Assembly (NCBI GenBank): GCA_963760755.1
Contig: CAVXEE010000007.1
Location: 434,459-498,458, forward strand
Direction: 5' to 3'
DNA length: 64,000 bases
Origin: an uncultured Actinomycetes bacterium
Lineage (GTDB): Bacteria; Actinomycetota; Thermoleophilia; Gaiellales; JAICJC01
A program made the translations under genes and the position numbers. Below are positions 4,498 to 27,660 of this stretch, piece after piece (within the stretch, counting starts at the first letter, position 1; the number at the start of each line of letters is the position of its first letter). A model generated the notes under the pieces. The model was given only the letters and a program-made list of their open reading frames with translations, was not told where the DNA came from and did not search any database.

Positions 4498-4586
4498 GCA
4501 AACCGAGTATACCGCGCGCCTCGGGGGTGAAACTGGCCGGCCCTGGCACACTGGGGGCGAGAGTGCCAATACGGCCCTTCGGTAGC

Positions 4587-7615: not shown

Positions 7616-8178
7616 GGCGACTCGCGCTGCTCGTCGCCGCGGCGGCCTGCCTGACGGCCTCCGCCTGCGGCGGGAGCGGCGGCGGCAGCTCGAGCAGCGC
7701 CCCGAAGGGGCCGCCGCTGGCAACGACGCTGCCCACGTCCGGGACCGTGCGGTACAAGGGCGACGGCCGCATCTACACGGTCGCGCCGCTGCACAAGCCC
7801 CTGCGGCTCGACGACATCGTCGTCCAGGTGCGCAGCGTCGTCTGGCGCTCGTCGGCCGGCGTCGGGTTCAAGCCCCCGGGGACGACCACCTACGGCGTCG
7901 TCACGCTCACGGTCACGAACCTGACCAAGTCGCGGCAGACGGTCGCGCCGACCCAGATCTGGCTGCGCGACGCAAGCGGGGCGCCGTTCCTCGCCGCCGC
8001 GACGACCACGGTGCCCGGGAACCTGCTGCGCAGGCCGATCCCGCCGGGACGGTCGGTGACCGGGACGCTCGTCTACCCGACGCCGCGGCGTGAGACCGGC
8101 TACCTGCTGGTGTACCGCTTCGGCGACGCCGCGGCCATCGCCAAGGCCGAGCACGTCGGCCTGGTGCGCTACTCCTAG
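7612..8178 (+). CDS. lipoprotein, DUF4352-like Ig-fold
   Basis: GTG 7612 overlaps the upstream stop (GTGA). The lipobox-like stretch is LLVAAAACLTASACGG. YGVVTLTVTNLTKSRQTV...GRSVTGTLVY resembles DUF4352. Only the last 188 codons of ORF 5812..8178 look coding. Confidence 0.6.
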   Translation: MRRLALLVAAAACLTASACGGSGGGSSSSAPKGPPLATTLPTSGTVRYKGDGRIYTVAPLHKPLRLDDIVVQVRSVVWRSSAGVGFKPPGTTTYGVVTLTVTNLTKSRQTVAPTQIWLRDASGAPFLAAATTTVPGNLLRRPIPPGRSVTGTLVYPTPRRETGYLLVYRFGDAAAIAKAEHVGLVRYS

Positions 8179-9458
8179 CCCAGCTCGCGCGAGAGCAGGT
8201 CGGCGACGGTCTCGCGGGCGACGACCACACGCTCGGCCCCGTCCGCGACCATCACCGCCGCCGGCCGCGGCAGGCCGTTGTAGTTCGAGGACATCGTGGC
8301 GGTGTAGGCGCCCGTCGCCGCCAGGGCGATCACATCGCCCGTCCGCAGCTGCGGCAACGCGGCCGCCTCGATCAGGATGTCGCCCGACTCGCAGTGCTTG
8401 CCGGCCACCGTGTAGGTGTGCGTCGCCGGCTCCCCGAGGCGATCGACCACGAACGCCTGGTAGCGCGCCCCGTACATCGCCGGGCGGGGGTTGTCGGCGA
8501 TGCCCCCGTCGACGGCGGCGTAGGTGACGCCGGCGTCCGTGCGCTTGATCGCACCGACCGTGTAGAGGGTGACGCCGGCCGGCCCCGCGATCGAGCGGCC
8601 GGGCTCGAGCACGAGCTCGGGCAGCGGCAGCCCGCGATCGCCGAGCAGCCCGGCCAGCACGGTCGCCGTCTGCTCGACCGCGGCGCGCACGTCGGGCGCG
8701 CGGTCGGCGTCGGTGTAGGCGATGGCAAGGCCGCCGCCGAGGTCGAGCACCGGCAGGTCGCCCAGGCCGTGTTCGGCGATGAACGACGCGAGCCACGCGG
8801 CGGCCTCGAGGTAGGTGCCGACGTCGCGGATCTGCGAGCCGAGGTGCACGTGCAGGCCGGCCGCGCGCACGTGCGCAAGCCCCGCCGCCGCCCGCAGCGC
8901 GGCGACGGCCGCCGCCGGGGGCAGGCCGAACTTCGACGCGGCGTGGCCGGTCGCGATCTTGTGATGCGTGTCGGCCTCGATCCCCGGCGTGACCCGCACG
9001 AGCACGTCCTGGACACGCCCGGCCGCGGCGGCGAGCGCCTCGATCTGGGCGAGCTCGGCCGGGTGATCGACCACCACCAGGCCGGCGCCGGCCGCAAGCG
9101 CCGCCGCGATGTCCGCGTCGGACTTGTTGTTGCCGTGCACGATCAGGCGCTCGCCCGGCACGCCGGCGGCGAGCGCGAAGGCCAGCTCGCCCTCCGAGGC
9201 CACGTCCATGCCGAGCCCTTCCGAGACGAGCACCCGCAGCACCGCGACGGTGACCTGCGCCTTGCAGGCGAAGGCCGCCCGGGCCGCGCCCGGGTACGCC
9301 GCCAGGCCGTCCCGGTAGGCGCGCGCACGCAGGCGCAGCGTGGCCTCGTCGTAGACGAGCAGCGGCGTGCCGTGACGGGCGGCCAGGTCGCCGAGCGCGA
9401 CGCCGCCGACGGCCAGGCGGCCGCCGGTCACCACCGCCGTCTCGGGCAGGACGCTCAT
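8175..9458 (-). CDS. lysA: diaminopimelate decarboxylase
   Basis: 427-aa ORF with the motifs FACKA (PLP Lys), HGNNKS, LDLGGGLAIAY, EPGRSIAG and CESGD. Confidence 0.92.
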   Translation of the reverse strand: MSVLPETAVVTGGRLAVGGVALGDLAARHGTPLLVYDEATLRLRARAYRDGLAAYPGAARAAFACKAQVTVAVLRVLVSEGLGMDVASEGELAFALAAGVPGERLIVHGNNKSDADIAAALAAGAGLVVVDHPAELAQIEALAAAAGRVQDVLVRVTPGIEADTHHKIATGHAASKFGLPPAAAVAALRAAAGLAHVRAAGLHVHLGSQIRDVGTYLEAAAWLASFIAEHGLGDLPVLDLGGGLAIAYTDADRAPDVRAAVEQTATVLAGLLGDRGLPLPELVLEPGRSIAGPAGVTLYTVGAIKRTDAGVTYAAVDGGIADNPRPAMYGARYQAFVVDRLGEPATHTYTVAGKHCESGDILIEAAALPQLRTGDVIALAATGAYTATMSSNYNGLPRPAAVMVADGAERVVVARETVADLLSRELG

Positions 9459-9502
9459 CGGATGGCCATCCTAGAGAGTCGGCGCCGGTATCCTGCCCGC
9501 CC

Positions 9503-11008
9503 ATGTCGAACCGCGTGCTCGTCGTCGGCTGGGACGGCGCCGACTGGGAGGTGCTCGACCCGCTGCTGCGGGCCGGCGACCTGCCCAACCTGGCGGCGCT
9601 CGCCGAGCGCGGCAGCCGCGGCGTCGCCCGCTCCGTCATCCCGTCGCACTCCTGGGCGGCGTGGCCGTCGTTTCTGACGGGCGTCGATCCGGCCGGGCAC
9701 GGCGTGTTCGACATCCTCGAGCACCGGCCCGGGCAGACGCGCCGGCTACCGGTCTCGTCGCGGTCGATCCTCGCGCCGACATGGCCGCAGCGGCTCTCCG
9801 ACGCCGGCCGCACCGTGCTGCTCGTGAACGTGCCGCTGACCTATCCGCCGATCCCGGTGCGCGGCGTCGTGATCGCGGGCGGCGTGATCCCGCCCAAGGC
9901 GGTCTACTCGCACCCGCCCGAGACCGGCCCTGCGCTGCACTGGCCGATCAACGGCGGCTCGTGGACGACCTTCCGCCACCGGCCGCTCGAGCTCATCGCC
10001 GACGTCGAGCGGGTGACGGCCGACCGTGCGGCGGCGGTGCGGCAGCTGCTCGACGCCGAGCCGTGGGACGTCGCCTGCGTCGTCTTCGTCTCGCCCGACC
10101 GCATCCAGCACTGCCTGCTCGAGTACGTGCACCCCGGCCACCCCGATCACGCGCGTGCCTCGCAGACACCGGTGGCCGAGCGCGTGCGCGACGTCTACCG
10201 CCTGCTCGACCGCGAGCTCGGGGCGCTGATCGAGCGCACCGACGGCGAGGACACCGTGATCGTCATGTCCGACCACGGCCACCAGCCCTGCACCCGGGCG
10301 CTGAACATGAACCGCGTGCTCGAGCAGCTCGGCTACCTGCACCTGGGGCGCGGCTCGGCCTTGATCGGCCTGCTCGCCTGGGGCCGCGTGCGCTCGCTCG
10401 CCCGCGTCGCCTACGACAAGCTCGGCCTGCACGGCAAGGTGGCCGTGCCGACGGCCCCGATCGACTGGGCGCGGACGCGGGCGTACACGAGCGTCGTCTC
10501 GACGGGCGAGGGCGTCTCGCTCGCGCTGCAGGGCCGCGAGCCCGAGGGCACCGTGCCGGCGGCCGACTACGAGCGCGTCCGCGCCGAGCTCGCCGCCGCG
10601 CTCGAGGGCTTCATCGACCCCGCGACCGGCCGCCACCCGATCCGGCGGGCGGTGCCGCGGGAGCAGGTGCTCTCGGGCGCCTACCTCGACCGCGCCCCCG
10701 ACCTCCTGCTCGAGGCCGCGCCGCTCTACTCGCTCACCCACGCCCGGCAGATGGTCGAGGCGGCCGACTGGCTCTCCGGCGACCACCGCCCCGAGGGCGT
10801 GTACGTGGCCGCCGGGCCGGGCACGGGGCCGGCCGACGGCGGCGAGATCGCGCTCACCGACTTCGCCGCGATCATCGCCGCGGCCGCGGGCGTCGCGGCG
10901 GACACCGCCCCCTCGGCAGCGCCGGACGAGCCCGACGGGGCGGTGTTCTCTGACGAGGAGCAGCGCGAGGTCGAGGAGCGCCTGCGCGGGCTGGGCTACC
11001 TCGAGTAG
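9503..11008 (+). CDS. alkaline-phosphatase superfamily protein (type I phosphodiesterase/nucleotide pyrophosphatase-like)
   Basis: VLVVGWDGADWEVLDPLL..PSHSWAAWPSFLTG..VMSDHGH is typical of the metal-binding core of this family. Confidence 0.75.
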   Translation: MSNRVLVVGWDGADWEVLDPLLRAGDLPNLAALAERGSRGVARSVIPSHSWAAWPSFLTGVDPAGHGVFDILEHRPGQTRRLPVSSRSILAPTWPQRLSDAGRTVLLVNVPLTYPPIPVRGVVIAGGVIPPKAVYSHPPETGPALHWPINGGSWTTFRHRPLELIADVERVTADRAAAVRQLLDAEPWDVACVVFVSPDRIQHCLLEYVHPGHPDHARASQTPVAERVRDVYRLLDRELGALIERTDGEDTVIVMSDHGHQPCTRALNMNRVLEQLGYLHLGRGSALIGLLAWGRVRSLARVAYDKLGLHGKVAVPTAPIDWARTRAYTSVVSTGEGVSLALQGREPEGTVPAADYERVRAELAAALEGFIDPATGRHPIRRAVPREQVLSGAYLDRAPDLLLEAAPLYSLTHARQMVEAADWLSGDHRPEGVYVAAGPGTGPADGGEIALTDFAAIIAAAAGVAADTAPSAAPDEPDGAVFSDEEQREVEERLRGLGYLE

Positions 11009-11015: not shown

Positions 11016-12488
11016 ATGACCGACGAGCGCACGCTGCTCGCGGGCACCGGCGCGAACGTCGTCGGCCTCGCGGTCGGCGTGCTGGCGGCCTTCGGCGTGC
11101 AGCTGCTGCTCGGCCGGCAGCTCCCCGGCGGCGGGCTCGCGCTCGTCACGGTCGCCGTCCAGATCGCGTTCGTCGTCGCGGCGGGGGCGCGCTTCGGCAT
11201 GGATCTTGCCTCGGTGCGCGCCGTCGCGATCGGCGCCGGGCGCGCGGACATGTCGGGCCTGCGCAGCCTCGTCGACCGCTGCGCCGGGATCGCGCTCGCC
11301 GCCGGTGTCGTGCTGGCCGTCGCCGTGGCGGCACTCTCGCCGCTTGCGGGCGACCGCGGAGCGGCGATCGCGGTCGGCGCGGCCTCGCTGCCGCTGATCG
11401 CCGCCGCCAACGTCTACCTCGGCGCCACCCGCGGCCTGAAGAAGATGGGGCCGACGCTGTGGGTGTTCTGGATCGGCCAGCCGGTGGCCTGGATCGCGCT
11501 CGCCGCCGCCGCGATCGCCGCCGGCGGGGGGACGAACGCCGCGATCGCCGCCTACGACCTGTCGTGGCTCGGGGCCGCGATCGCCGCCCGCGTCCTGTGG
11601 CGAGGGCTGGCGGCGTGGCCGGGTGCGCGCCCGGCGACTCGGGCCGAGGTGCGGGCCGTGCTGCGCTACGGCGCGCCGCGCGCACCGTCGGCGCTGCTCG
11701 CCCAGGCGCTCTTCTGGGGCGACCTGTTCGTGCTCGCCCACTTCGCCTCGGGCCGGACGCTCGACGCCTACGCCGCCGCCGCCCGGATCGCCCAGCTGAT
11801 CCTGCTCTTCCTCACGTCGGTGAACCTGGTGTTCTCGCCGTTTGCCGCCGACCTGCACGCGCGCGGCGAACGCGCCCAGCTCGACGCGCTCTTCAAACGC
11901 GCGACCCGCTGGGCGCTCGGGGCGACGCTGCCGCTCGCGATCGTGCTCTTCGTCGCAGCGCCCCAGGTGCTCGAGGCCTTCGGCCCGGGCTTCGCCGTGG
12001 GCGCGACGCCGCTGCGGATCATGCTGCTCGGCCAGACGGTGAACGTCGCCACCGGCGGCGTGGCCTTCGTGCTCGTCATGGCCGGGTTCACCGGCATCGA
12101 TCTGGCCGACAACGTGCTCGCGGCGGTCGTGCTCTTCGCCCTGGCGATCCCGCTCGCGGCGGAGGTCGGCCCGGCCGGCGCCGCCGCCGCCTCGGCCGCC
12201 GCGCTCGCGGCGGTGAACGTCGTGCGCCTGATCCAGGTTCAGCGCCTGGTCGGCGTGCAGCCGTTCGATGCCGACTACCTGCGCCTCGGCATCCCGGCCG
12301 CGGGCTGCGCGCTGGCGGCATGGACGGCGCGGGCGGCCACCGGCTCGCACGCGTGGTGGGTCGCGGTCGCGGCGACGACGCTCGCCGGCGCGGCCGCCTA
12401 CGCCGTGCTGCTGCCGGCGGGGCTGCCCGCCGCCGAGCGGTCGGCCGTGGCCGCGTTCACGCGCAGGATCGCGAACCGGCCCAGGTGA
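11016..12488 (+). CDS. MOP/Wzx-type polysaccharide (oligosaccharide) flippase
   Basis: 490 aa with about 12-14 TM helices. The N-terminus LLAGTGANVVGLAVGVLAAFGVQLLLGR and the overall layout are typical of polysaccharide biosynthesis protein family flippases. Confidence 0.7.
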   Translation: MTDERTLLAGTGANVVGLAVGVLAAFGVQLLLGRQLPGGGLALVTVAVQIAFVVAAGARFGMDLASVRAVAIGAGRADMSGLRSLVDRCAGIALAAGVVLAVAVAALSPLAGDRGAAIAVGAASLPLIAAANVYLGATRGLKKMGPTLWVFWIGQPVAWIALAAAAIAAGGGTNAAIAAYDLSWLGAAIAARVLWRGLAAWPGARPATRAEVRAVLRYGAPRAPSALLAQALFWGDLFVLAHFASGRTLDAYAAAARIAQLILLFLTSVNLVFSPFAADLHARGERAQLDALFKRATRWALGATLPLAIVLFVAAPQVLEAFGPGFAVGATPLRIMLLGQTVNVATGGVAFVLVMAGFTGIDLADNVLAAVVLFALAIPLAAEVGPAGAAAASAAALAAVNVVRLIQVQRLVGVQPFDADYLRLGIPAAGCALAAWTARAATGSHAWWVAVAATTLAGAAAYAVLLPAGLPAAERSAVAAFTRRIANRPR

Positions 12489-14506
12489 TCCGGCGTGTCG
12501 GCCGGGTCGCGGTAGATCAGGTGCAGCGCGGGGTCGGCCAGGATCTGCGCCACCACGTCGGGCGGCTGGTCGCGCAGGTCGAGCAGGACGTAGCGGGCAT
12601 GGAGGCGGCGCAGGATGGCGGCGCGGCGGGCGGCGGTCGTCTCGAGCGAGAAGAAGGACTGCTCGAGGTGGTTCAGGCGTGACTCGTCCAGGCGCGGCAC
12701 GGCCCGGGTGCGCGCCTCGGGCAGCACAGCGGCGCGGATGTTGGCGAACGCGAAGAGCTCGAACAGCCGCTGCGGGTCGCCCAGCACCACCGGCGGCGGC
12801 CCCGGGATGCGCCGGAAGGCGGCCGCCGCGCCGGGCGTGATCCGCACGGTCTCGAACGCGGGCGGGGAGCGGTACGGGCCGTCGACGGCCGACGTGCGCA
12901 CCACCGGGCCCCAGTGCCAGATCCACGGCCCAAGCGCCGCCACGACGAGCGCCACCGCGCCCGCCGAGACCGTGAGGGCAGGCGCCTGCCTGGCACGGAA
13001 GCGCAGCGCCAGCGGGACGGCCGCCAGGCCGGCGACGACGAGCACGCTCGCCGGGGTGTGCCACACCCACGGGATGCCGCGCACCTCGTGCCCGGCGAGC
13101 GCGAGCGCCACCGCGAGCGGCCACGCCCACCGGCCCAGGGCGGCGGCCGCAATGCACGCCCCCGCCGCGGCGACTGCCGGCCAGGTGAGCGGCTGCCAGA
13201 AGCGATGGAACTGGCCCATGCCGACCGCGGCGATCAGCACCGTGTTCACGCCGGGGACGAGCAGCATGACCAGTAGGGCGACGCTCGACGCCGCCAGCGG
13301 CAGCAGCGCGCGGTAGCGGGCCACGACCACGAGCAGCAGGATCGCGAGCAGGACGTAGCCGCGATCGAACACGGGCGCCCACGGGTACATGACGAGCGCA
13401 CGGCGGCCGTGGATCAGGAACTCGTCGGCGTGTGACAGCACCGGGTGGCGGTGGCCGCCGCGGATCGCGACCGCCCAGATCCAGACCGACACGGCGCCGA
13501 TCAGCGCCGTCGATCCCGCCAGGGTGAGCGCCGGGGTGCGGATCGCCCGGTCGCCGGCCAGCCACGCGCCGGCCAGGAGGCCGGCCGCGAGCACGAGCGC
13601 CGGGATGGCGTACGTCGGGTGCACGAGCGCGATCGCCACCATCGCGGCCAGCGTCGCCGGCGCCGCTCGCCGCACCCGCCCGATCTCGAGCAGGAACAGG
13701 ATCAGCACGGCAGGCGTCAGCACCCACACGCTGAACGGCGCGGGCTGGTTGATCTGGATGACGAGGCCGTTCAGGAGCGAGCACAGGTCCCAGGCGACGA
13801 AGGCGGCGGCGAGCACGGCGACGCCCCGCCGCCCCGTCAGCGCCTTGCCGAGCGCATAGGCGCTCGTGATCGCAAGCGCCGCGCACAGGGGCTGCACGTA
13901 CCGGAACGCCGTCACCGGGTCGGTGCCCGACAGGCGCGCCATCCCCGCGATCGCGGCGTGCATGACCGGGAAGGCGTAGCCGGCGTTCGCGGGGCCGTGC
14001 TCGAACGGGGAGAGGCTCGCGAACGAGATCCCCGGCACGTCCTCGAGCTTGCGGATCAGGCCGACGTGGAAGAGCCCGTCGCCCACGACCGGCAGCGACA
14101 GGCGCCAGCCCAGGTAGGCGAAGGCGGCGACGCCGGCCGCGCCCGCGCCGATCTCGCGGGCACCCGTGCTCGGGAGCGCGCAGCGGCGGCGCACGCAGAC
14201 GCCGAGCGCCAGGATCTCGGCCGCGACGCCGGCGAGCACGAAGCCGAGCGGCAGGTCGAGCAGGAAGGCGAGGGCGAGCGGCGGCCCCCACGCCACCAGC
14301 CCGAGCGCGGCGGCGACCGGGGCCGCCCCGGCGCGGCCGAGGTCGCCCTCGAGCTCGAGCGCGCGCAGCGCGAGCCAGCCCGGCAGCAGGAGCACGAGCC
14401 CCGCGGCGAGCCACACCGCGAGCGCGTCGAGGCCGAGGCCGCGGGCGACGGGCAGGCCGGCGGCCACGACGGCGACGGCGGCCAGCTCCAGCCTGCGCGC
14501 ATGCAC
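12398..14506 (-). CDS. large polytopic membrane protein with a C-terminal soluble domain (GT-C-like architecture, function unknown)
   Basis: 702 aa. More than 12 hydrophobic helices are followed by a roughly 170-aa soluble tail. The first loop carries VVGDGLFHVGLIRKLED. Its 3' end overlaps the convergent flippase gene by 91 nt. Confidence 0.6.
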   Translation of the reverse strand: MHARRLELAAVAVVAAGLPVARGLGLDALAVWLAAGLVLLLPGWLALRALELEGDLGRAGAAPVAAALGLVAWGPPLALAFLLDLPLGFVLAGVAAEILALGVCVRRRCALPSTGAREIGAGAAGVAAFAYLGWRLSLPVVGDGLFHVGLIRKLEDVPGISFASLSPFEHGPANAGYAFPVMHAAIAGMARLSGTDPVTAFRYVQPLCAALAITSAYALGKALTGRRGVAVLAAAFVAWDLCSLLNGLVIQINQPAPFSVWVLTPAVLILFLLEIGRVRRAAPATLAAMVAIALVHPTYAIPALVLAAGLLAGAWLAGDRAIRTPALTLAGSTALIGAVSVWIWAVAIRGGHRHPVLSHADEFLIHGRRALVMYPWAPVFDRGYVLLAILLLVVVARYRALLPLAASSVALLVMLLVPGVNTVLIAAVGMGQFHRFWQPLTWPAVAAAGACIAAAALGRWAWPLAVALALAGHEVRGIPWVWHTPASVLVVAGLAAVPLALRFRARQAPALTVSAGAVALVVAALGPWIWHWGPVVRTSAVDGPYRSPPAFETVRITPGAAAAFRRIPGPPPVVLGDPQRLFELFAFANIRAAVLPEARTRAVPRLDESRLNHLEQSFFSLETTAARRAAILRRLHARYVLLDLRDQPPDVVAQILADPALHLIYRDPADTPDHLGRFAILRVNAATADRSAAGSPAGSSTA

Positions 14507-14573
14507 GGCGGCATGCTAACGAAGGCCCTGCGTGCGCTGCGGACGCGGACCGGGCTATACCATCGGCTTCCCC

Positions 14574-14593
14574 CGATAGCATTCCGGCTATCG
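14574..14593. promoter_or_regulatory. perfect inverted repeat in the divergent intergenic region upstream of sqdB
   Basis: CGATAGC (14574-14580), 6 nt, then GCTATCG (14587-14593). A related GGCTATACCATCGG copy lies just upstream. The repeat sits between the divergent starts 14506 (-) and 14652 (+). Confidence 0.4.
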
Positions 14594-14651
14594 TTGTGCC
14601 GCGGTCGGAGGGGCCGCGTTCCAAATTCACCACTACGTACGGAGTGCGCGC

Positions 14652-15830
14652 ATGCGAGTTTTGATCCTCGGCGGGGACGGCTATCTGGGATGGCCGACGG
14701 CGATGCGGTTCTCGGGACGGGGCCACGACGTGGCCGTCGTCGACAACTTTGCGCGCCGGCGCTGGGTCGACGAGATGGGCGGCGACTCGCTGACGCCGAT
14801 CGTCTCGCTCGATGACCGCATCGAGGCGTGGCGGGAAACGTCCGGCAAGCGCATCCAGTCCTATGTCGGCGACCTGTCCGAGGACACCGTCGCGGCCGAC
14901 GTCGTGGTCGACTTCCAGCCGGACACGATCATCCACTACGGCGAGCAGCCGAGCGCACCCTGGTCGATGCGCAGCGTCGACCACGCGGTGATCACGCAGC
15001 GCAACAACGTCATCGGCTCGCTGAAGCTCCTGTGGGCGATGCGCGACCACGCGCCGAACGCACACCTGATCAAGCTCGGGACGATGGGCGAGTACGGCAC
15101 GCCGAACATCGACATCGAAGAGGGCTTCATCGAGATCACGCACAAGGGCCGCACCGACGTGCTGCCCTTCCCGAAGATGCCGGGCTCGCTGTACCACCTG
15201 TCCAAGGTGCACGACAGCCACAACATCCACTTCGCCTGCCGCGTCTGGGGCCTGCGCGCGACCGACCTCAACCAGGGCGTGGTGTACGGCGTCGAGACGC
15301 CGGAGGCGAAGCTCGACGAGCGCCTGCTGACCCGCTTCGACTACGACGAGGCGTTCGGCACGGCCCTCAACCGCTTCTGCGTCCAGGCGGTCGTCGGCAT
15401 GCCCCTCACCGTCTACGGCGGCGGCCACCAGACGCGTGGCTTCCTGAACATCGTGGACACGCTCCAGTGCGTCGAGCTCACCGCCGAGAACCCGGCCGGG
15501 GCGGGCGAGTACCGCGTGTTCAACCAGTTCACCGAGACGTTCACCGTCGCCGAGCTGGCCGAGAAGGTCAAGCACGCCGGCGGCGAGGTCGGCATCGACG
15601 TGACCATCGACCACGTCCAGAACCCGCGCTTCGAGGCCGAGGAGCACTACTACAACCCGATCCACACGAAGCTCCCGTCCCTGGGCCTGCACCCCACGCT
15701 GCTGAGCGAGAACCTGATCGAGTCGACGCTCGGCGTGATCCAGCGCTACCGCGACCGGGTCATCCCCGACGTGATCGCGCCGAGCACGCAGTGGCGGCCG
15801 GCTCCTCCGGTCGGCCAGCCCGCATCGTGA
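14652..15830 (+). CDS. sqdB: UDP-sulfoquinovose synthase
   Basis: MRVLILGGDGYLGWPTAMRFS..VDN..RRWVDEMGGDSLTPI..FGEQPSAPWSM..KLGTMGEYGTPNIDIEEGF..YHLSKVHDSHNIHFACRVWGLRATDLNQGVVYG..ALNRFCVQA..QTRGFL..NPRFEAEEHYYN. This is collinear with SQD1/SqdB as I recall those sequences. An ACGGAG Shine-Dalgarno lies upstream. Confidence 0.9.
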   Translation: MRVLILGGDGYLGWPTAMRFSGRGHDVAVVDNFARRRWVDEMGGDSLTPIVSLDDRIEAWRETSGKRIQSYVGDLSEDTVAADVVVDFQPDTIIHYGEQPSAPWSMRSVDHAVITQRNNVIGSLKLLWAMRDHAPNAHLIKLGTMGEYGTPNIDIEEGFIEITHKGRTDVLPFPKMPGSLYHLSKVHDSHNIHFACRVWGLRATDLNQGVVYGVETPEAKLDERLLTRFDYDEAFGTALNRFCVQAVVGMPLTVYGGGHQTRGFLNIVDTLQCVELTAENPAGAGEYRVFNQFTETFTVAELAEKVKHAGGEVGIDVTIDHVQNPRFEAEEHYYNPIHTKLPSLGLHPTLLSENLIESTLGVIQRYRDRVIPDVIAPSTQWRPAPPVGQPAS

Positions 15831-15843
15831 GAGAGTTGCCCGG

Positions 15844-16890
15844 GTGACACCGCTTCGCACGACCGGCCTCTTCGCGGCGCTGCTCTTCGCGGCCCTCACG
15901 ATCAACGCGTACCGCCAGGGCAAGATCGGAAACGGCGACCTGCTCGTGCGCCTGGGCGTGTTCACCCTGCCGCTCCTCCTGTTCTCGCTCGAGCCGGGGG
16001 CGCTGCAGTGGTCGTTCGACGAGCTCTCGTTCCGCAAGGGCGGCGGCCACCAGATCATGGGCGCGACCGTTCTGGCGGTCGGCGTGCTCTACCTGTTCAC
16101 GTTCGGCCTCGCCGGCCGCGGCGAGAAGTCGCGCCGCGACCTCACGCGCCTGATCGAGAACCTCGCGCTCGAGCAGTTCCGCGCCACCGGCCACCCCGAG
16201 CAGTTCGCCGGCGGCGTGGCCGTCGTCGTCCCCGCCTACAACGAGGCCGACAACATCGACCACGTGCTCTCGTCGCTTCCAGGCATGGTGTGCGGCCTGC
16301 CGCTGCACACGATCGTGGTCGACGACGGCTCCTCCGACGACACGACCGAGCGCGCCCGCGCGGCCGGCGCGGCGGCGGTGCGGCTGCCGCTCAACCGCGG
16401 CCAGGGCGCCGCGCTTCGCACCGGCTACCGGCTGGCCCTGGCGACCGGCGCCGAGATCGTCGTCACGATGGACGCCGACGGCCAGCACCAGCCTTCCGAG
16501 CTGTCGCGGCTCGTGCAGCCGATCGCAGACGGCGAGGCCGACGTCGTCGGCGGCTCGCGCGTGCTCGGCGACGCCGATCCGTCGCACGCCGCCCGCGAGA
16601 TGGGCATCCGCCTGTTCGCCCGGCTGCTGTCGCTGCTCACCTGGAGCCGGGTCACCGACCCGGCGTGCGGCTACCGCGCGGTGCGCACCGAGGCGCTGCG
16701 CGGGCTCGAGTTCCGCCAGGACCAGTTCCACAACTCGGAGTTCATCGTCGAGGCGTCCAAGAAGCACCTGCACACGATCGAGGTGCCGGTCACGGTGACG
16801 AGCCGCCTGTCCGGCACGTCGAAGAAGCCGCCCCACTTCCGCTACGGGATGGGCTTCGCCAACGCACTCGTCCGCGCCTGGCTTCGTTAA
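15844..16890 (+). CDS. membrane-anchored GT2 glycosyltransferase (polyprenyl-phosphate glycosyltransferase-like, DPM1/GtrB type)
   Basis: The N-terminal 110 or so aa carry 3 hydrophobic helices. These are followed by VVVPAYNEADNI..VVDDGSSDDT..TMDADGQHQP, the GT-A DXD-type core. Confidence 0.85.
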   Translation: MTPLRTTGLFAALLFAALTINAYRQGKIGNGDLLVRLGVFTLPLLLFSLEPGALQWSFDELSFRKGGGHQIMGATVLAVGVLYLFTFGLAGRGEKSRRDLTRLIENLALEQFRATGHPEQFAGGVAVVVPAYNEADNIDHVLSSLPGMVCGLPLHTIVVDDGSSDDTTERARAAGAAAVRLPLNRGQGAALRTGYRLALATGAEIVVTMDADGQHQPSELSRLVQPIADGEADVVGGSRVLGDADPSHAAREMGIRLFARLLSLLTWSRVTDPACGYRAVRTEALRGLEFRQDQFHNSEFIVEASKKHLHTIEVPVTVTSRLSGTSKKPPHFRYGMGFANALVRAWLR

Positions 16891-16924
16891 CCTGAAATCC
16901 CTCCGCTGCGCTGCGGGATTTCAG
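16891..16924. terminator. bidirectional intrinsic terminator hairpin between convergent genes
   Basis: CCTGAAATCCC (16891-16901), 12 nt, then GGGATTTCAGG (16914-16924), an 11-bp perfect stem. It starts right after the GT2 stop (TAA 16888-16890) and overlaps the epimerase stop. Confidence 0.7.
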
Positions 16925-17835
16925 GTGGAGAGAAACCATTCCCACGTGCGCTTGAGTCCCTCTCCGAGCTCGACGCGGGGCGAGTACCCAAGGACATCGC
17001 GGGCCTTCTCGATCAGCGAGTAGTTGCGCTGGATCTCGCCCGCGCGGGGCGGCTCGCGGCGCACGCGCGGGGTGATCCCCGAGGTCTCGGCGAGCAGTTC
17101 GAGCAGGCGGGCGAGGGTCGTCTCGACGCCGCTTGCGAGCTGGAAGATCTGGCCGCCGACGCCGGGTGTGCGCGCGGCCGCGATCAGGCCCGCCGCGAGG
17201 TCCTCGCAGAAGACGAAGTCGCGCGTCTGGCTGCCGTCGCCGTACACGATCAGCTCCTCGCCGGCGCGCAGGCGACGGATGAAGAGCGGGATCACATTGC
17301 CCTTGTGCGCCGAGCGCGGCCCGTAGGCGTTCGAGAACCGCACGACGACCGCGTCCATCCCGTAGGCGCCGTGGAACGCCGAGCAGTACGCCTCGCCGGT
17401 CGCCTTCGACGCGCCGTAGGGCGAGAGCGGCGCAACCGGCTTCTCCTCGCTCGCCGGGTAGGCGTTCTCGCCCAGAGGCGCGTTCGACGACGAGAACACG
17501 AGCCGCGGCACCTCGGCCCGGCGCGCCGCCTCGAGCACGGTCAGCGTCCCGCGCGCGTTCTGGTCGAAGTTCGTGAGCGGATCGTTCATCGACTCCACGA
17601 CGCCCGCGCCGGCGGCCAGGTGGAAGACGACGTCGCCGCCCCGCGCCGCCTCGGTCACGAAGGCGAGGTCGCGCACGTCGCCGACGCGCAGCTCGGCGCC
17701 GGTGCCCTCGAGGTTTCGCGGATCGCCCGACGAGAGGTCGTCGATGACGCGCACGCCGTAGCCCTCCGCGGCGAGCGCGCGACAGAGCGCCGAGCCGATG
17801 AACCCGGCGCCACCGGTGACGATCGCCCGGGGCAC
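16921..17835 (-). CDS. NAD-dependent sugar-nucleotide epimerase/dehydratase (extended SDR)
   Basis: MPRAIVTGGAGFIGSAL (GxxGxxG) and YGASKATGE (YxxxK). 304 aa. Confidence 0.85.
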   Translation of the reverse strand: MPRAIVTGGAGFIGSALCRALAAEGYGVRVIDDLSSGDPRNLEGTGAELRVGDVRDLAFVTEAARGGDVVFHLAAGAGVVESMNDPLTNFDQNARGTLTVLEAARRAEVPRLVFSSSNAPLGENAYPASEEKPVAPLSPYGASKATGEAYCSAFHGAYGMDAVVVRFSNAYGPRSAHKGNVIPLFIRRLRAGEELIVYGDGSQTRDFVFCEDLAAGLIAAARTPGVGGQIFQLASGVETTLARLLELLAETSGITPRVRREPPRAGEIQRNYSLIEKARDVLGYSPRVELGEGLKRTWEWFLST

Positions 17836-17859: not shown

Positions 17860-18075
17860 CTACTCGCCGCCGTCGGAGGCGCCCGGCGCGGCGCCCTTCT
17901 GCCAGCACGGCGCGCCCTCGAACGCCTCGAGCCCCGACACCACCCGCACCGGCGCGCCGGGCGTGCGGCCGCGGCGCAGGCGCGGGGCGACGACCGCCGC
18001 GGCAGCGCCGACCAGACCGCCGACCACGAACGGGCGCACGACGCCACGACGGCGACCCGACCCGCGCTCGCTCAC
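17860..18075 (-). CDS. small hypothetical single-pass membrane protein
   Basis: 71 codons. GTG 18075 overlaps the upstream stop as GTGA. One hydrophobic segment, PFVVGGLVGAAAAVVAP. Supported only by position and coupling. Confidence 0.3.
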   Translation of the reverse strand: MSERGSGRRRGVVRPFVVGGLVGAAAAVVAPRLRRGRTPGAPVRVVSGLEAFEGAPCWQKGAAPGASDGGE

Positions 18076-18587
18076 GACGCCTCGCGGTAGGCGAAGAACG
18101 CCGCGATCGCGAGCCCGAGCACCTGGATGTAGGCGCGCGCGTTGCCGCCGAGCTGGGCGGCGATCACGATCCCGGCGATCACGTACGCCCAGGCGGCGCC
18201 GCCGGCGGCGATCCACCCGGTGGTCGTGCTGCGGTAGTACCCGGCCCCCCACAGGGTCGCCCGGCCGGCCAGGAGGCCGACGCCGTAGGCCAGGATGAAG
18301 GTGAAGAAGCCCACCCCGAACCCGCCGGCGTAGGCCAGGACGACGCCCATGACCGAGCCCGCGCCGAGCGCCGACAGGACGGCGCGCACGGCCTTGTCGG
18401 CGTGCAGCGTGACGCGCGCCGAGCGCGGCATGCGCGCGCACTCGCGGCACTTGATGCCGACCGGCGCCGGGACCATGCAATCGGGGCAGATCGGCTTGCC
18501 GCAGTTCGAGCACGACACGCCCGTCTCGACCTTCGGGTGGTTGGCGCAATAGACCGGCGCGGCGATGCCCGGGTCGACCGTGGACAC
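18072..18587 (-). CDS. membrane protein with an N-terminal B-box/zinc-ribbon-like Cys cluster
   Basis: CANHPKVETGVSCSNCGKPICPDCMVPAPVGIKCRECA is followed by about 4 TM helices. 171 aa. Confidence 0.6.
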   Translation of the reverse strand: MSTVDPGIAAPVYCANHPKVETGVSCSNCGKPICPDCMVPAPVGIKCRECARMPRSARVTLHADKAVRAVLSALGAGSVMGVVLAYAGGFGVGFFTFILAYGVGLLAGRATLWGAGYYRSTTTGWIAAGGAAWAYVIAGIVIAAQLGGNARAYIQVLGLAIAAFFAYREAS

Positions 18588-18640: not shown

Positions 18641-19561
18641 ATGACCCGCCACCCCTCCGGCCTCATGCAGATGACCGCCGAGGTCGAGCGGGCGCTGATC
18701 CGCTCCGAGCCCGTGGTGGCGCTCGAGTCGTCGGTCATCGCCCAGGGCCTGCCGCCCGAGATCGCGCCCACCGCGGCCCGCGACGCGCAGCAGCGCGTGC
18801 GCGACCGGGGCGCCGTGCCGGCGACGATCGCGATCATCGACGGCGTCGTGCGCGTCGGGCTCGACGACGAGTCGATCGACCGCCTCGCGAACGACGGCGA
18901 CGTGCGCAAGGTCGGCGGCCGCGACCTGGCCACCTGCGCCGTCAGCGGCCGCTGCGGCGCGACGACGGTCGCCGGAACGCTCGCGGTGTGCACCATGGCC
19001 GGCATCCACTTCATGGCCACGGGCGGCATCGGCGGCGTCCATCGCGGCTGGGAGCACACGCTCGACATCTCCGCCGACCTGACCGAGATCGGCCGCACCG
19101 AGGTTTGCGTCGTCTGCTCCGGGGCCAAGTCGCTGCTCGACATCCCGGCCACGCTCGAGATGCTCGAGACGCGCGGCGTGCCGATCATCGGCTACCGCAC
19201 CGACACGCTGCCGCTGTTCTACGTGACGCAGAGCCGGCACGCGCTGACCGACCGCGCCGACGACGCCGAGACGATCGCCGCGGCGGCCGCCGCCCACTGG
19301 GGATTCGCCCGCCGCACGGGGCTCCTGGTGGTGCAGCCGGTGGCGGCCGAGGTGGCGCTCGCAGGCGACGAGACCGAGGCCCTGGTCGAGACCGCGCTCG
19401 CGCAGGCGGCCGCCGAGGGCGTGCGCGGCCCGGCGGTCACGCCCTGGGTGCTGGCGCGTCTGCACGCCGCGACCGAGGGCCGGTCGCTGGTCGCGAACCA
19501 GCGCCTGCTGGTCGACAACGCCGGCCTCGCGGCCGAGATCGCCGCCGCCTACTACGCCTGA
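18641..19561 (+). CDS. psuG: pseudouridine-5'-phosphate glycosidase
   Basis: VALESSVIAQGLP..GATTVAGTL..AGIHFMATGGIGGVHRG..DISADL.E..VVCSGAKSLLDIP.TLE.LET.GVP. This is the family signature as I recall it. Confidence 0.9.
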   Translation: MTRHPSGLMQMTAEVERALIRSEPVVALESSVIAQGLPPEIAPTAARDAQQRVRDRGAVPATIAIIDGVVRVGLDDESIDRLANDGDVRKVGGRDLATCAVSGRCGATTVAGTLAVCTMAGIHFMATGGIGGVHRGWEHTLDISADLTEIGRTEVCVVCSGAKSLLDIPATLEMLETRGVPIIGYRTDTLPLFYVTQSRHALTDRADDAETIAAAAAAHWGFARRTGLLVVQPVAAEVALAGDETEALVETALAQAAAEGVRGPAVTPWVLARLHAATEGRSLVANQRLLVDNAGLAAEIAAAYYA

Positions 19562-21592
19562 CTACCCGGTGGGCAGGGCAGCTCGCCGGCACGTGAAGCC
19601 GGCCATGGTGGCCGGGTCGGGGAACGAGCCGCCGCCCGCCCCGCGCACGCGGTAGACGTCGAGCACCGGGCTCGAGTGCACGAGCGCGAGGAACGGCACC
19701 CCCCGGAACGCCTCCGGGTCGACGCCAGACTCGAGCACGCCGACCATGCTGCCGATGCGCACGCCCTTGACGACGAGCACCTCGTCGACGCCGAGCCGGT
19801 GCAGGAGCGCCGCCCCGCCGGCCGGAGCCTCGAAGAACCGGTGCGCCGCGAGCACGTTTCGGAGCACCGTGTGCAGCATCGCCGGACGCAGGTACGGGCC
19901 CATCCCCTCGGCGACGCTGACCCTGCCGGTGGTGGCGACGAACGTCCCCAGCGTGACGCGGTCGGGCAGGATGCGCGCATCGCAGGGCGCGTGCACGGCC
20001 ACCCAGTCGAGCACCGTCATCGCGTCGTGGCCGTTCTTCTGCCAGCCGCTGCGGGCGGGGCCGACGGTGGCCGCGACGGCGACCGCCGGCACGGCGATCG
20101 CGACCGCGACGACGGCGACCGGGATCCACGCACGCACGGTCCGCAGCCGCCCCACCGCCGCCTCGGCGAGCCCCAGCGCCGCCAGCACGAGCACGAGCGG
20201 GACGTAGTCGAACTCGCGGTCGATGCCGAACCGGCCCGGGATCTGGGTGCGGTAGCGGTACGAGAACAGGAACGCGATCCCGACCAGCGTGGCCGCCGCC
20301 CCCGCGGCGACGATCCCGATCGGCGCCAGCTCGGGCGGGAAGCGGCGCAGCATGACGACGGCCGCCGCGACCGCCGCGATGGGGAGCAGCCACACGAGCC
20401 AGGTGGGCACGCTCGGCAGCGTGGTCGCGCTCTCCGTGAAGTCCTGCATGATCGCCGCCGGCCGCACGTACCAGTGCCCGTGGTCGACGGGCGAGTGCTG
20501 CAGCGTGCCGGTGAGCAGCGACGCGGTCGGGTCAACGCCCTTGCCGAACGACGCGTACGAGCTCGCGCCGGACGCGCCCTGGAATCCCACCGATCCGCCC
20601 GACGCCAGCAGGAGCACGCCGGTCAGCGCCGCACCGGCGCCGGCGATCACCGCCAGCCGCCCGAACACGGCTCGCCAGCGGCCGTCGAGCATGCCGCGGG
20701 CCACGGCGTACCAGCCCAGGACGACGAGCAGCGCCACCACCGGCACGCCGTGGGTGGCAAACCCGGCGCCGAAGAGCAGCGCGGCCAGCAGGGGCTCCTT
20801 CCACCCGTCGCGGTCGCGCAGCGCCCGCACGCCGAGCACGAGCGCACACACCGACACCATGCGGCCGACGTTCTCGGCCGTGTACACGTCGAGGTTGCGG
20901 CGCAGCTCGTCGTTCAGGACGGCCAGGGTCAGGAGCGGCAGGAGCGGCGCCAGCCGGCGCAGGCCGAGCTCGCGGCCGAGCGCCCACAGGCCGGCGGCGA
21001 GGCCGACCGACGCCACCCAGAGCAGCGCGCCCATCGCGGGCAGCGGCGAGCGCCCGATCACGTAGGAGAGCCCGGCGTGGTAGCTGTTCAGCACGACCTT
21101 GCTGACCGTCGGCGTCCACGTCGCCCCCCACTGCAGGGTCTGTGCGGGCACGCGGCCGGCGTCGGCGATCTCGAGGCCGTCGGCCCAGTACCGCCACGGC
21201 CCGAACATCTCGAAGTTGAGCAGCGGCGAGCTGCGCAGGCGCACGATCGCGATCGCGACGAAGACGAGCACGCCCATGGCGAGGCCGAAGCGGTCATCGG
21301 CGATGTCGGCCTGCAGCGCGGCCAGGTGTGCCCGCGCACCGCCGCGGCGCAGGCCCGCCACGTACAGCGCCACCGTGACGACGAGGAGCGCGCCCAGAAA
21401 GGTCGCCGGATGCAGCACGTGCCCGATCACGAGCACGACCGCGGTCATGCCGACGACCGCGTAGCCGAGCCCGAACGTGAGCGCGAACCGCGTCACCAGC
21501 CCGACCCGCCCCGGCGGATACGCGGCCAGCGTCGCTCCCAGGCCGGGCACGAGCACGAACGCCGCGGCGGTCGCGATCGTGGCCGGGTTCAC
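19562..21592 (-). CDS. large polytopic membrane protein with a C-terminal soluble domain (GT-C-like architecture, function unknown)
   Basis: About 676 aa from GTG 21592, which overlaps the upstream stop as GTGA. The ATG at 21664 would overlap the upstream gene by 76 nt. Many TM helices, a YWADGLE loop and a soluble tail of about 150 aa. Confidence 0.6.
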   Translation of the reverse strand: MNPATIATAAAFVLVPGLGATLAAYPPGRVGLVTRFALTFGLGYAVVGMTAVVLVIGHVLHPATFLGALLVVTVALYVAGLRRGGARAHLAALQADIADDRFGLAMGVLVFVAIAIVRLRSSPLLNFEMFGPWRYWADGLEIADAGRVPAQTLQWGATWTPTVSKVVLNSYHAGLSYVIGRSPLPAMGALLWVASVGLAAGLWALGRELGLRRLAPLLPLLTLAVLNDELRRNLDVYTAENVGRMVSVCALVLGVRALRDRDGWKEPLLAALLFGAGFATHGVPVVALLVVLGWYAVARGMLDGRWRAVFGRLAVIAGAGAALTGVLLLASGGSVGFQGASGASSYASFGKGVDPTASLLTGTLQHSPVDHGHWYVRPAAIMQDFTESATTLPSVPTWLVWLLPIAAVAAAVVMLRRFPPELAPIGIVAAGAAATLVGIAFLFSYRYRTQIPGRFGIDREFDYVPLVLVLAALGLAEAAVGRLRTVRAWIPVAVVAVAIAVPAVAVAATVGPARSGWQKNGHDAMTVLDWVAVHAPCDARILPDRVTLGTFVATTGRVSVAEGMGPYLRPAMLHTVLRNVLAAHRFFEAPAGGAALLHRLGVDEVLVVKGVRIGSMVGVLESGVDPEAFRGVPFLALVHSSPVLDVYRVRGAGGGSFPDPATMAGFTCRRAALPTG

Positions 21593-23028
21593 GCGCTCGC
21601 CGCGTCGGCGGCTCCACCCGCGGCGGCCATCGTCGTCCCGGCCAGGAAGCCGGTCAGAAGCCACATCGTCGGATCCTCGAAGAACGAGTCATAGAAGAGC
21701 GAGCTGGCGAAGATCGCCACCAGGGCGGCCACGAGCACACGCGGCACGGGGCCGGACGCGCGCACGCGCACGGCCGCTGCCGCGAGCGCCCCGAGCACCC
21801 ACAGGTAGAGCACGAGCCCGAGCGGACCGAGCTCGGCGGCGACCGTCACCGGCGTCGTGTGCGACGCCGCCCCCTTGACCCGGTACGGATGCGCCGTGCC
21901 CGCCACCGCGGCCTTCGGCAGGCCGCCGAGGCCGGCGCCGATCACGGGATGGTTGCGGATCACCCTCCAGCCGAGGCTGATCAGGTGCGAGCGCGAGTCC
22001 GACACGCGCGCGGCCGAGTTGCCGCGCAGGGCGACCGCCAGCACCCCGATGAGCCCGACCGCCCCCGCGACGACGAGCGCGATCGTCACCCGCCGCGACC
22101 ACAGGCCGGCGCCGACGGCGAGCACGCCCGCCGCGACGGCGAAGTAGCTCGACTGCGAGTAGGTGAAGTAGAGGCCCAGGAAGACGAAGGCCATCGTGGC
22201 CGCGAGCGGCAGGTCGAGGCCGCGGTAGACGGCCACCCCGCAGCAGAGCACGAGCGTGACCGCCATGAAGCGACCGTACACGCTCGCGTCCCAGAAGAGC
22301 GAGTTGACGCGGAAGAACGAGCGGTAGGCGTTCGAGACCTCGACGCTCGGGTTCCAGAACACGTGCCGCGTCGCCTCCTGCCAGAGCGCCACCGCCCCGA
22401 ACAGGATCGCAAGCGCGCACTGGGCGGCGAACGCCGCCCGCAGTCCGCCCGGGTTCCAGCCCAGCTGGCCGATCCGCATCGCCATGAACGCGAACGGCAG
22501 GTAGAAGAAGAGCATCGTCACCGCGGCCTGGTGCAGGTCGACCGTCCACACGAGCGACGCGGCCGAGAAGGTCACGAACGCCGCCAGCGGCAGCGCCGCC
22601 CCCCACACCGGCAACTCGGGCTCGCTCGCCCGGGCGACGTCCCAGAGCGTGCACAGGGCGCCCACGGCCAGCACGCCGTAGAGCGGCAGCAGGAGCTTCG
22701 CGTCCTGCGCGCCGAAGTGGATCGGGATGCGCGCGGGTGCCGCCAGCACGCAGGCGATCGCAAACGCCCACGGCCACCGGTGCACCACGACGGCGGCGGC
22801 GATCATGACCGCGGCGCCGACGACGAGCGCGGGCACGACGAGCAGCGGATGGCCCGTGATCAGGTGGCCGGCGCGATCGACCGACGAGTGCAGCAGGCGC
22901 GCCGCCAGCCACACCGTGCCGATCACCCACGCGGCCGCGCCGGCACGGCGAGCCGTCGGGGTGCGGACGACGACCAGGGCACCCAGGCCGGCCGCGGCCA
23001 CGACGGCCGCGATCGCCTGGCTATTCAC
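21589..23028 (-). CDS. O-antigen ligase/polymerase-like (Wzy_C domain) membrane protein
   Basis: 479 aa with more than 10 TM helices. It has the characteristic periplasmic loop SDSRSHLISLGWRVIRNHPVIGAGLGG...ASHTTPVTVAAELGPLG. Confidence 0.68.
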   Translation of the reverse strand: MNSQAIAAVVAAAGLGALVVVRTPTARRAGAAAWVIGTVWLAARLLHSSVDRAGHLITGHPLLVVPALVVGAAVMIAAAVVVHRWPWAFAIACVLAAPARIPIHFGAQDAKLLLPLYGVLAVGALCTLWDVARASEPELPVWGAALPLAAFVTFSAASLVWTVDLHQAAVTMLFFYLPFAFMAMRIGQLGWNPGGLRAAFAAQCALAILFGAVALWQEATRHVFWNPSVEVSNAYRSFFRVNSLFWDASVYGRFMAVTLVLCCGVAVYRGLDLPLAATMAFVFLGLYFTYSQSSYFAVAAGVLAVGAGLWSRRVTIALVVAGAVGLIGVLAVALRGNSAARVSDSRSHLISLGWRVIRNHPVIGAGLGGLPKAAVAGTAHPYRVKGAASHTTPVTVAAELGPLGLVLYLWVLGALAAAAVRVRASGPVPRVLVAALVAIFASSLFYDSFFEDPTMWLLTGFLAGTTMAAAGGAADAASA

Positions 23029-24318: not shown

Positions 24319-24371
24319 CCAGGGGACGCTAGCAACGGCTCGTTGGACGCTGATCCGGGTCGTCGGGCAAT

Positions 24372-24406: not shown

Positions 24407-24419
24407 GCGGTCCTGCGAC

Positions 24420-25115: not shown

Positions 25116-27660
<2,545 letters not shown>

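Follow-up and report, generated by a model that had tools for sequence, protein, structure and literature searches.

What becomes of UDP-sulfoquinovose in a soil bacterium that is not photosynthetic? Sulfoquinovose (SQ) is usually treated as a product of phototrophs, where it occurs in sulfoquinovosyl diacylglycerol (SQDG); a few rhizobia and the N-glycans of archaea are the exceptions. The question is raised by a 64-kb stretch of DNA from an uncultured member of the Gaiellales (contig CAVXEE010000007.1, G+C content about 73%), referred to in its full length as the window, in which a homologue of the UDP-sulfoquinovose synthase gene sqdB is followed directly by a gene for a family 2 glycosyltransferase (GT2). 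A preliminary description of the locus had proposed that SQ is loaded here onto a polyprenyl phosphate (polyprenyl-P) and transferred to an extracytoplasmic acceptor. Our analysis makes it fairly probable, though far from certain, that a three-component system for extracytoplasmic glycosylation, with SQ as its sugar, is encoded here. Genes were called by third-position GC content and annotated with Pfam and NCBIfam. The argument turns on the following five genes.

11016-12488, plus strand: Wzx/MATE-like membrane protein of the MOP superfamily, 490 aa, candidate flippase (Pfam Polysacc_synt and MatE)
12398-14506, minus strand: polytopic DUF6541 protein of the GT-C fold, 702 aa, candidate extracytoplasmic sulfoquinovosyltransferase (AlphaFold2 model and Foldseek)
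14652-15830, plus strand: SqdB/SQD1-type UDP-sulfoquinovose synthase, 392 aa (SQD1 homology)
15844-16890, plus strand: DUF2304-GT2 fusion, 348 aa, predicted polyprenyl-phosphate sulfoquinovose synthase (Pfam and profile matches)
19562-21592 (longest open reading frame to 21664), minus strand: second GT-C-fold protein, a paralogue of the first, 676 aa (AlphaFold2 model and Foldseek)

The SqdB protein aligns without a gap to Arabidopsis SQD1 (1QRR) from residue 2 to residue 383 (residues 3-384 of 1QRR) with an E value of 3e-151, and 221 of the 382 aligned residues (58%) are identical. The next solved structures in the list are generic short-chain dehydrogenases/reductases (SDRs) at 1e-10, approximately 140 orders of magnitude weaker. 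The SQD1 residues T145, Y182, H183 and K186 correspond to T144, Y181, H182 and K185 of the window protein, and all four are kept. The gene had already been described as a clear SqdB/SQD1 homologue, and both the full-length match and the retained active-site threonine, tyrosine and lysine together with the SQD1-specific histidine bear this out. Close homologues are named UDP-sulfoquinovose synthase by JGI; copies with 99% identity are found in metagenome-assembled genomes (MAGs) of uncultured Actinomycetes, and named homologues with 91-95% identity come from MAGs of Gaiellales (class Thermoleophilia). The assignment of the window SqdB as a UDP-sulfoquinovose synthase that makes UDP-SQ is well supported by this homology.

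At nine of the genome loci described below, a class-V aminotransferase gene (Aminotran_5, 3.9e-55) immediately precedes sqdB in the same orientation, for example in an Actinomycetota subset at 8672-9946 in locus L050, 3197-4702 in L047 and 2651-3901 in L034. Its product could be a putative source of sulfite for SqdB of the cysteine-sulfinate-desulfinase type.

The GT2 gene starts 13 nt past the sqdB stop codon. Its three N-terminal hydrophobic transmembrane helices and its motifs PAYNE, DDGSSDDT and DADGQH were all found as the preliminary description had given them; unrecognised there was that the N-terminus is a DUF2304 domain. In the window protein this domain spans residues 5-110 with an E value of 3e-5 and 24.7 bits, slightly below the cut-off of 25.5, and it was detected independently in 18 of the 32 members of the GT2 family (best E value 5.6e-10; 34.9 bits in L050). 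The sqdB-linked GT2 homologues are all about 350 aa long, and from this uniform length we conclude that the DUF2304-GT2 fusion is universal in the family. GacJ and Rv3632 both belong to DUF2304: GacJ joins the undecaprenyl phosphate (Und-P)-GlcNAc synthase GacI in a complex and reduces the Km of GacI for Und-P, the polyprenyl-P-GalNAc synthase PpgS is stimulated by Rv3632, and fusions of GacJ and GacI are already on record (bioRxiv 10.1101/180810).

The catalytic domain occupies residues 125-348, with a Pfam Glycos_transf_2 match at 127-286 (2.8e-25) and a DxD motif whose aspartates, D210 and D212 (D210-A-D212), are invariant in the 32 homologues. The best named NCBIfam families are PpgS, AglJ, the haloarchaeal dolichyl-phosphate (Dol-P)-hexose transferase and ArnC, all of them polyprenyl- or dolichyl-phosphate sugar synthases. 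When the profile of the 32-member family was compared with solved structures, the dolichyl-phosphate mannose synthase (DPMS) of Pyrococcus (1e-25) and ArnC aligned across residues 124-329, whereas the alignment of GpgS and other soluble GT2 enzymes stops at about residue 233 and covers the N-terminal, nucleotide-binding half. Alignment over the full catalytic domain, which takes in the C-terminal region that binds the lipid phosphate, was obtained only with polyprenyl-phosphate glycosyltransferases. The window GT2 is predicted from its sequence to be a fusion of the GacJ-GacI or Rv3632-PpgS type and to belong to the polyprenyl-phosphate sugar synthases.

The 702-aa protein encoded divergently from sqdB is polytopic with a C-terminal soluble domain, as had been described, and has about 13 transmembrane helices. 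Neither this protein nor its paralogue belongs to a curated GT-C sequence family such as Pfam PMT_2, the former having a sub-threshold match to DUF6541 and the latter no Pfam match, and searches of the PDB sequences with either single sequence gave nothing useful. We thus turn to profiles, built from alignments of 42 (DUF6541 protein) and 32 (paralogue) sequences, and to structures predicted with AlphaFold2. The model of the DUF6541 protein has a mean predicted local distance difference test score (pLDDT) of 90.8 and a predicted template modelling score (pTM) of 0.91, and that of the paralogue a mean pLDDT of 87.6 and a pTM of 0.91. In Foldseek searches of the PDB, the top 18 matches of the DUF6541 model are all GT-C enzymes with a probability of 1.00, among them AftA (4e-6), DPY19, STT3, AftD, AglB and PglB; the first unrelated match, a transporter, comes after these 18. 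For the paralogue the top 26 are all GT-C enzymes (STT3, DPY19, AftD, ALG12, PglB, ArnT, AftB, Pmt, PimE and ALG3), with E values down to 1e-6 and probabilities of 1.00 for the top 20 and 0.72-0.99 for the last six. The label 'GT-C-like' used in the preliminary description therefore holds at the level of the fold, given two confident models whose top matches are exclusively GT-C.

Profile comparison with hhalign indicates that the two families are homologous (97.7% probability, E value 2e-12) and that the DUF6541 family is remotely related to the PMT_2-like family of other loci (88%, 3e-6). Polytopic proteins linked to sqdB elsewhere do pass the PMT_2 threshold, scoring 49.7 and 55.8 bits where 26.1 are required. 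D143, H147 and R152 are invariant across the 42 DUF6541 homologues, and D143 aligns with the invariant D138 of the paralogue family in what is, as predicted from the positive-inside rule only, an outward loop; a catalytic role may be proposed for this aspartate. An identical database protein exists for the paralogue (P0241, 676 aa), and homologues of it are encoded near sqdB in L016, L050, L051 and L066.

The candidate flippase matches Pfam Polysacc_synt with 33.7 bits (cut-off 28.2) and MatE with 23.9 bits and has about 11 transmembrane helices. Its gene is kept directly upstream of sqdB in the Gaiellales loci L001-L015 except L014. The Wzx-like and DUF6541 genes of the window are convergent, and as called their 3' ends share 91 nt (12398-12488).

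How firmly sqdB and the GT2 gene belong together was assessed in both directions. A scan seeded with SqdB and restricted to one genome per species returned 80 loci, and counts are given over 81 genome loci, of which 56 have at least 5 kb on both sides of sqdB (full-flank loci). Represented are Gaiellales, Solirubrobacterales, Thermoleophilales and other Actinomycetota; Acidimicrobiia, Dehalococcoidia, Anaerolineae and Planctomycetaceae contribute one bin each. By six-frame hidden Markov model (HMM) searches, a member of the GT2 family lies near sqdB in 71 of the 81 loci and in 53 of the 56 full-flank loci, placed either immediately downstream of sqdB or divergently upstream. In Solirubrobacterales the pair is surrounded by housekeeping genes (ilvBN, menF, menD, gatAB, ndh), and the variety of these contexts tells us that the pair is conserved as a unit and not within a larger syntenic block. 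Where the GT2 is absent despite full flanks (three loci), sqdB stands alone amid housekeeping genes; several further loci lack it because the contig simply ends there. We considered SqdX as a replacement for the GT2 in the loci without it and rejected this, the neighbours being MoaA, GNAT, isopropylmalate/isocitrate dehydrogenase, a permease and a muramidase.

The reverse scan of metagenomes, seeded with the profile of the GT2 family, returned 80 loci. Wherever a locus reaches 4 kb or more upstream of the GT2 gene (26 loci), sqdB is present, and the loci without sqdB are short contigs, so that in this sample the GT2 subfamily is found only with sqdB. The adjacency of sqdB and the GT2 gene, for which the preliminary description had suggested a survey of related genomes, holds in both directions and is far beyond chance. 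The commonest metagenomic architecture has sqdB divergent from an operon of two PMT_2-like genes and the GT2 gene (22 complete cases and 16 cut by contig ends); sqdB is directly divergent from the GT2 gene in 12 loci. A PMT_2-like GT-C gene stands beside the GT2 gene in 47 of the 80 metagenome loci, on the same strand in all but one and usually between the GT2 gene and sqdB, an arrangement which suggests that GT-C genes are co-transcribed with the GT2 gene in most soil representatives. Among the genome loci, 30 of 81 have a GT-C-fold gene within 10 kb of sqdB: DUF6541 and/or the paralogue in Gaiellales and four others, and the PMT_2 type in 17 loci. The acidimicrobial locus L061 has the order Wzx-like gene, sqdB, PMT_2 gene, SDR gene.

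A lipid-phosphate-sugar synthase, a flippase and a GT-C enzyme, the set of a three-component system, are thus predicted side by side between 11016 and 16890 of the window, with the second GT-C gene at 19562-21592. We propose that they act in four steps. In the cytoplasm, SqdB would convert UDP-glucose and sulfite to UDP-SQ, a step that is well supported. The DUF2304-GT2 fusion, as an inverting enzyme, would then move SQ onto polyprenyl monophosphate at the inner membrane face to yield polyprenyl-P-SQ, with the DUF2304 domain as its built-in stimulatory membrane partner. The lipid-linked SQ would be flipped across the membrane, in Gaiellales likely by the Wzx/MATE-like protein, and enzymes of the GT-C fold, the DUF6541 protein and its paralogue here and the PMT_2 type in Solirubrobacterales, would add it to an acceptor outside the membrane. 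Enzymes with these activities are established: polyprenyl-phosphate glycosyltransferases of the GT2 family act on the cytoplasmic side, where they invert UDP-alpha-sugars to polyprenyl-P-beta-sugars, MOP or GtrA-type proteins flip such donors, and GT-C enzymes use them outside the membrane (bioRxiv 10.1101/180810; PMC11127046). Neighbouring genes for a LytR-CpsA-Psr (LCP) protein, a Wzy_C protein with its propeller and a deacetylase point to a cell-wall glycopolymer, a lipoglycan or a surface glycoprotein as the acceptor. The type of the GT2, its DUF2304 domain, the GT-C folds and the two-way linkage support, as a genomic inference, the route that the preliminary description had sketched.

Several observations weigh against this reading. 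SqdB scores 498 bits against the NCBIfam equivalog model NF041015, whose cut-off is 575, with the whole model matched (1-384 of 384); owing to this score, NCBI gives these SqdB proteins the generic name 'NAD-dependent epimerase/dehydratase'. The GT2 stays far below the equivalog cut-offs of its best families, with 108 bits (3.4e-31) against 370 for PpgS, 97 against 325 for AglJ and 59 against 529 for ArnC, and we therefore regard it as a separate subfamily and not as an orthologue of a characterized synthase. UDP-SQ as its probable donor and polyprenyl-P as its probable acceptor are assigned from family resemblance and gene linkage only. The DUF6541 match of the 702-aa protein, at 23.9 bits, does not reach the Pfam gathering score of 29. 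A linked flippase is found only in Gaiellales and in L061, and a recognised GT-C gene lies within 10 kb in only 23 of the 56 full-flank genome loci, the sqdB-GT2 pair standing alone in many. Finally, a canonical SQDG synthase could be encoded outside the window and the flanks of the related loci.

The scarcity of linked GT-C genes favours an alternative in which the GT2 makes a terminal membrane sulfoglycolipid, either polyprenyl-P-SQ as an end product or a phosphorus-sparing lipid of the beta-SQ-diacylglycerol type, while the GT-C enzymes serve other pathways. The stand-alone two-gene module amid housekeeping genes in many Solirubrobacterales would fit this as well, and GT2-family lipid glycosyltransferases that act on diacylglycerol exist, for example the cyanobacterial MGlcDG synthase. 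However, the catalytic domain of the GT2 aligns in full length only with polyprenyl-phosphate enzymes, 47 of the 80 metagenome loci seeded with the GT2 carry a PMT_2-like GT-C gene beside it, and DUF2304 partners are known only for polyprenyl-P-HexNAc synthases (bioRxiv 10.1101/180810). We consider a terminal sulfoglycolipid unlikely.

UDP-SQ might instead feed ordinary SQDG through an unlinked synthase of the SqdX or SqdD type, with the GT2 using UDP-Glc or UDP-GlcNAc and the linkage reflecting shared regulation or the supply of UDP-glucose. A precedent exists in some cyanobacteria, in which sqdB and sqdX are unlinked (PMC13436972); the sequence of the GT2 does not reveal its donor specificity, and the search for an SQDG synthase covered the 64-kb window and the 10-kb flanks of related loci. 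Within this space, the earlier statement that no SqdX or SqdD is adjacent stands for GT4 enzymes, as none of the 81 genome loci has a GT4-like open reading frame within 3 kb of sqdB; for GT8 it is based on the annotated neighbours, among which there is no Pfam match to GT8, no explicit GT8 search having been made. The nearest GT4 gene of the window, at 4362-5798, was considered as a hidden SqdX and rejected: it matches PimA over its full length (1e-36), travels with the deacetylase/LPG_synthase_TM gene and lies about 9 kb from sqdB. Moreover, a linkage that is nearly obligatory both ways and persists in different orders, contexts and gene orders would be difficult to understand if the two genes did not share a pathway, and we regard UDP-SQ destined for SQDG alone as quite improbable. 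That the SqdB homologue makes another C6-modified UDP-hexose, which the GT2 then loads onto the carrier, would accord with the NF041015 score and the generic NCBI name but is scarcely credible given the ungapped identity to SQD1, the conserved Thr, Tyr, Lys and SQD1-specific His and the gap to the next solved matches.

We next place the proposed glycosylation system among characterized ones. The SQDG pathway (SqdB-SqdX in cyanobacteria, SQD1-SQD2 in plants, SqdBDC/SqdA in alpha-proteobacteria) shares with it the first enzyme and the intermediate UDP-SQ, but continues with a retaining GT4 (SqdX/SQD2) or GT8 (SqdD) enzyme and ends in a diacylglycerol lipid, whereas the window encodes an inverting GT2 of the predicted polyprenyl-P type and GT-C proteins. 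The current view of the SQ-containing glycan of Sulfolobus is that it is built up on a dolichol-linked oligosaccharide before AglB transfers it; to our knowledge, a polyprenyl-monophosphate-SQ donor used by a GT-C side-chain transferase has not been described for Sulfolobus. The Agl3-dependent N-glycosylation of Sulfolobus acidocaldarius resembles the window system in a non-lipid fate of UDP-SQ, with SQ placed on a surface glycoprotein through a lipid-linked pathway, and differs in being archaeal (PMC4388408).

Similar in architecture is the GacI/GacJ/GacK/GacL system for the GlcNAc side chain of the group A carbohydrate in Streptococcus pyogenes, which likewise has a GT2 synthase with a DUF2304 partner, a flippase of the Wzx family, a polytopic GT-C transferase and attachment of the polymer by LCP proteins (bioRxiv 10.1101/180810). 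It transfers GlcNAc from UDP-GlcNAc, whereas the proposed system includes a dedicated UDP-SQ synthase, has GT-C proteins of other families (DUF6541 and, in other loci, PMT_2) and has the partner domain fused to the N-terminus. The PpgS (Rv3631)/Rv3632/Rv3779 system, which adds GalN to arabinogalactan in Mycobacterium tuberculosis, is also actinobacterial, combines the best-scoring family of our GT2 with a DUF2304 partner, has a GalE-type epimerase nearby and ends with a GT-C step; it differs in its sugar nucleotide and in having two genes in place of the fusion, and the window GT2 is not an orthologue of PpgS, as its score indicates. The three-component systems GtrA/B/C, ArnC/ArnT and PPPRS-MATE-GT136 have in common with the window a lipid-monophosphate donor synthase, a flippase, which in the pentofuranose systems is of the MATE/MOP type as here, a GT-C enzyme with a C-terminal soluble domain and an optional auxiliary epimerase (PMC11127046). 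The proposed system differs from them in the new, anionic C-sulfonated hexose, in a nucleotide-sugar synthase inside the conserved module and, in many genomes, in an unlinked flippase. Since the equivalog cut-offs are not reached, we conclude that the window system is not an orthologue of GacIJKL, PpgS/Rv3632/Rv3779, Gtr, ArnC/ArnT or the pentofuranose systems.

The remaining genes of the region are as follows.

1716-2948, plus strand: LCP glycopolymer transferase, a cell-wall glycopolymer context (Pfam LytR_cpsA_psr, 1.2e-40)
4362-5798, plus strand: PimA-like GT4 (PimA the best solved match)
5459-7615, plus strand: polysaccharide deacetylase fused to an LPG_synthase_TM domain (Pfam/NCBIfam)
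8175-9458, minus strand: lysA (Pfam/NCBIfam)
9503-11008, plus strand: type I phosphodiesterase of the alkaline-phosphatase superfamily with a C-terminal transmembrane helix (Pfam Phosphodiest, 1.7e-36)
16921-17835, minus strand: GalE-like SDR, 304 aa, probably a UDP-hexose 4-epimerase, auxiliary (matches to solved structures)
18072-18587, minus strand: small membrane protein
18641-19561, plus strand: PsuG-like protein (Indigoidine_A family)
21589-23028, minus strand: polytopic Wzy_C protein, O-antigen ligase/polymerase-like, 479 aa (Pfam Wzy_C 34.9 bits, cut-off 31.7)
23035-25143, minus strand: PQQ-like beta-propeller protein, partner of the Wzy_C protein (PQQ_2 and Beta-prop_ACSF4 matches)
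beyond 25143: ClpB, then a DnaJ/GrpE/DnaK region

The preliminary description, which covered 11016-17835, had rightly listed a Wzx-like flippase and an SDR epimerase among the flanking genes, but the alkaline-phosphatase-superfamily gene that it also placed there ends just before its first position; the GT-C paralogue, the Wzy_C protein and the PQQ propeller lie past its end. An Rfam scan of the window returned no RNA elements.

The best solved matches of the GalE-like SDR, at 1e-53 to 1e-56, are 6WJB/6WJ9, deposited as an NAD-dependent epimerase/dehydratase family protein, and the UDP-glucose 4-epimerase 4ZRM. Its gene is kept beside the sqdB-GT2 pair in Gaiellales; an SDR gene also follows sqdB in L075 and the sqdB-PMT_2 pair in L061. 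The enzyme may supply UDP-Glc or adjust the nucleotide-sugar pool, or it may alter the configuration of the sugar, and it parallels the auxiliary epimerases of other three-component systems. The phosphodiesterase has one transmembrane helix, at residues 448-466, and no signal peptide is apparent; in Gaiellales, and only there, its gene is kept along with the Wzx-like gene upstream of sqdB. The genes for the Wzy_C and PQQ propeller proteins, adjacent in the window, are a single fused gene of 921 aa in L001 (16935-19700), which hints at a ligase or polymerase that carries a propeller domain outside the cytoplasm. The PimA-like GT4 gene and the deacetylase-LPG_synthase_TM (flippase-like) gene (4362-7615) are kept upstream in Gaiellales together with the LCP gene, and the group looks like a glycolipid or aminosugar-lipid module. 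The PsuG-like gene, of the pseudouridine-5'-phosphate glycosidase family, stands beside the pair in the window and in 15 further genome loci (e.g. L034, L050, L057, L063, L071, L072 and L077) and persists even in distant ones at about 40% identity; a functional link is not obvious. At 35526-38036, a long open reading frame with matches to the Glyco_transf_4 N-terminal domain, PHP and PHP_C may be an unusual fusion or a mis-called frame over two genes.

A second module lies at 49774-53513. It consists of a polytopic protein of 552 aa with about 10 transmembrane helices and no Pfam match (49774-51432, minus strand), a divergently encoded ArnC/GtrB-type GT2 with two C-terminal transmembrane helices (51341-52492, plus strand; ArnC model, 176 bits) and, next to it, an RmlB-like NDP-hexose 4,6-dehydratase (52500-53513, plus strand; 328 bits). 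It is probably a separate system for polyprenyl-P-deoxyhexose side chains, and from this second module with the same logic in the window we conclude that the organism uses this architecture generally.

In our literature search, no publication connected SQ with polyprenyl, undecaprenyl or decaprenyl phosphate, with GT-C enzymes, with the surface glycans of bacteria or with Thermoleophilia, in line with the preliminary description, which knew of no such bacterial route. Current accounts of the SQ cycle take SqdB-SqdX as their starting point, and a 2026 review of SQ cycling gives only this pair for bacteria (PMC13436972). The genomic evidence supports a system that follows the known three-component logic, has a new sugar, which is sulfonated, and carries a dedicated synthase for the nucleotide sugar inside the module; its second enzyme is unlike that of every described SQ pathway. 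The module would add a new biochemical fate for UDP-SQ and a new lipid-linked donor.

The Thermoleophilia (Gaiellales, Solirubrobacterales and relatives) rank with the most abundant Actinomycetota of soils. For the class as a whole, we judge the chances to be about evenly balanced that its members make polyprenyl-phosphate-sulfoquinovose and put SQ on a cell-wall polymer, a lipoglycan or a surface glycoprotein. If true, this would be the first bacterial SQ glycoconjugate besides SQDG and the first use of a polyprenyl-monophosphate carrier for a sulfonated sugar. A surface decoration with SQ would be permanently anionic and free of phosphate and could affect the charge of the envelope under phosphate limitation, in analogy to the teichuronic acids that replace teichoic acids. 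With it, the sulfur cycle of soils would also gain a large source of SQ that is not phototrophic, an organosulfonate for SQ-degrading soil bacteria. The locus suggests that sulfoquinovose reaches the cell surface of abundant non-photosynthetic soil bacteria by a hitherto undescribed route.

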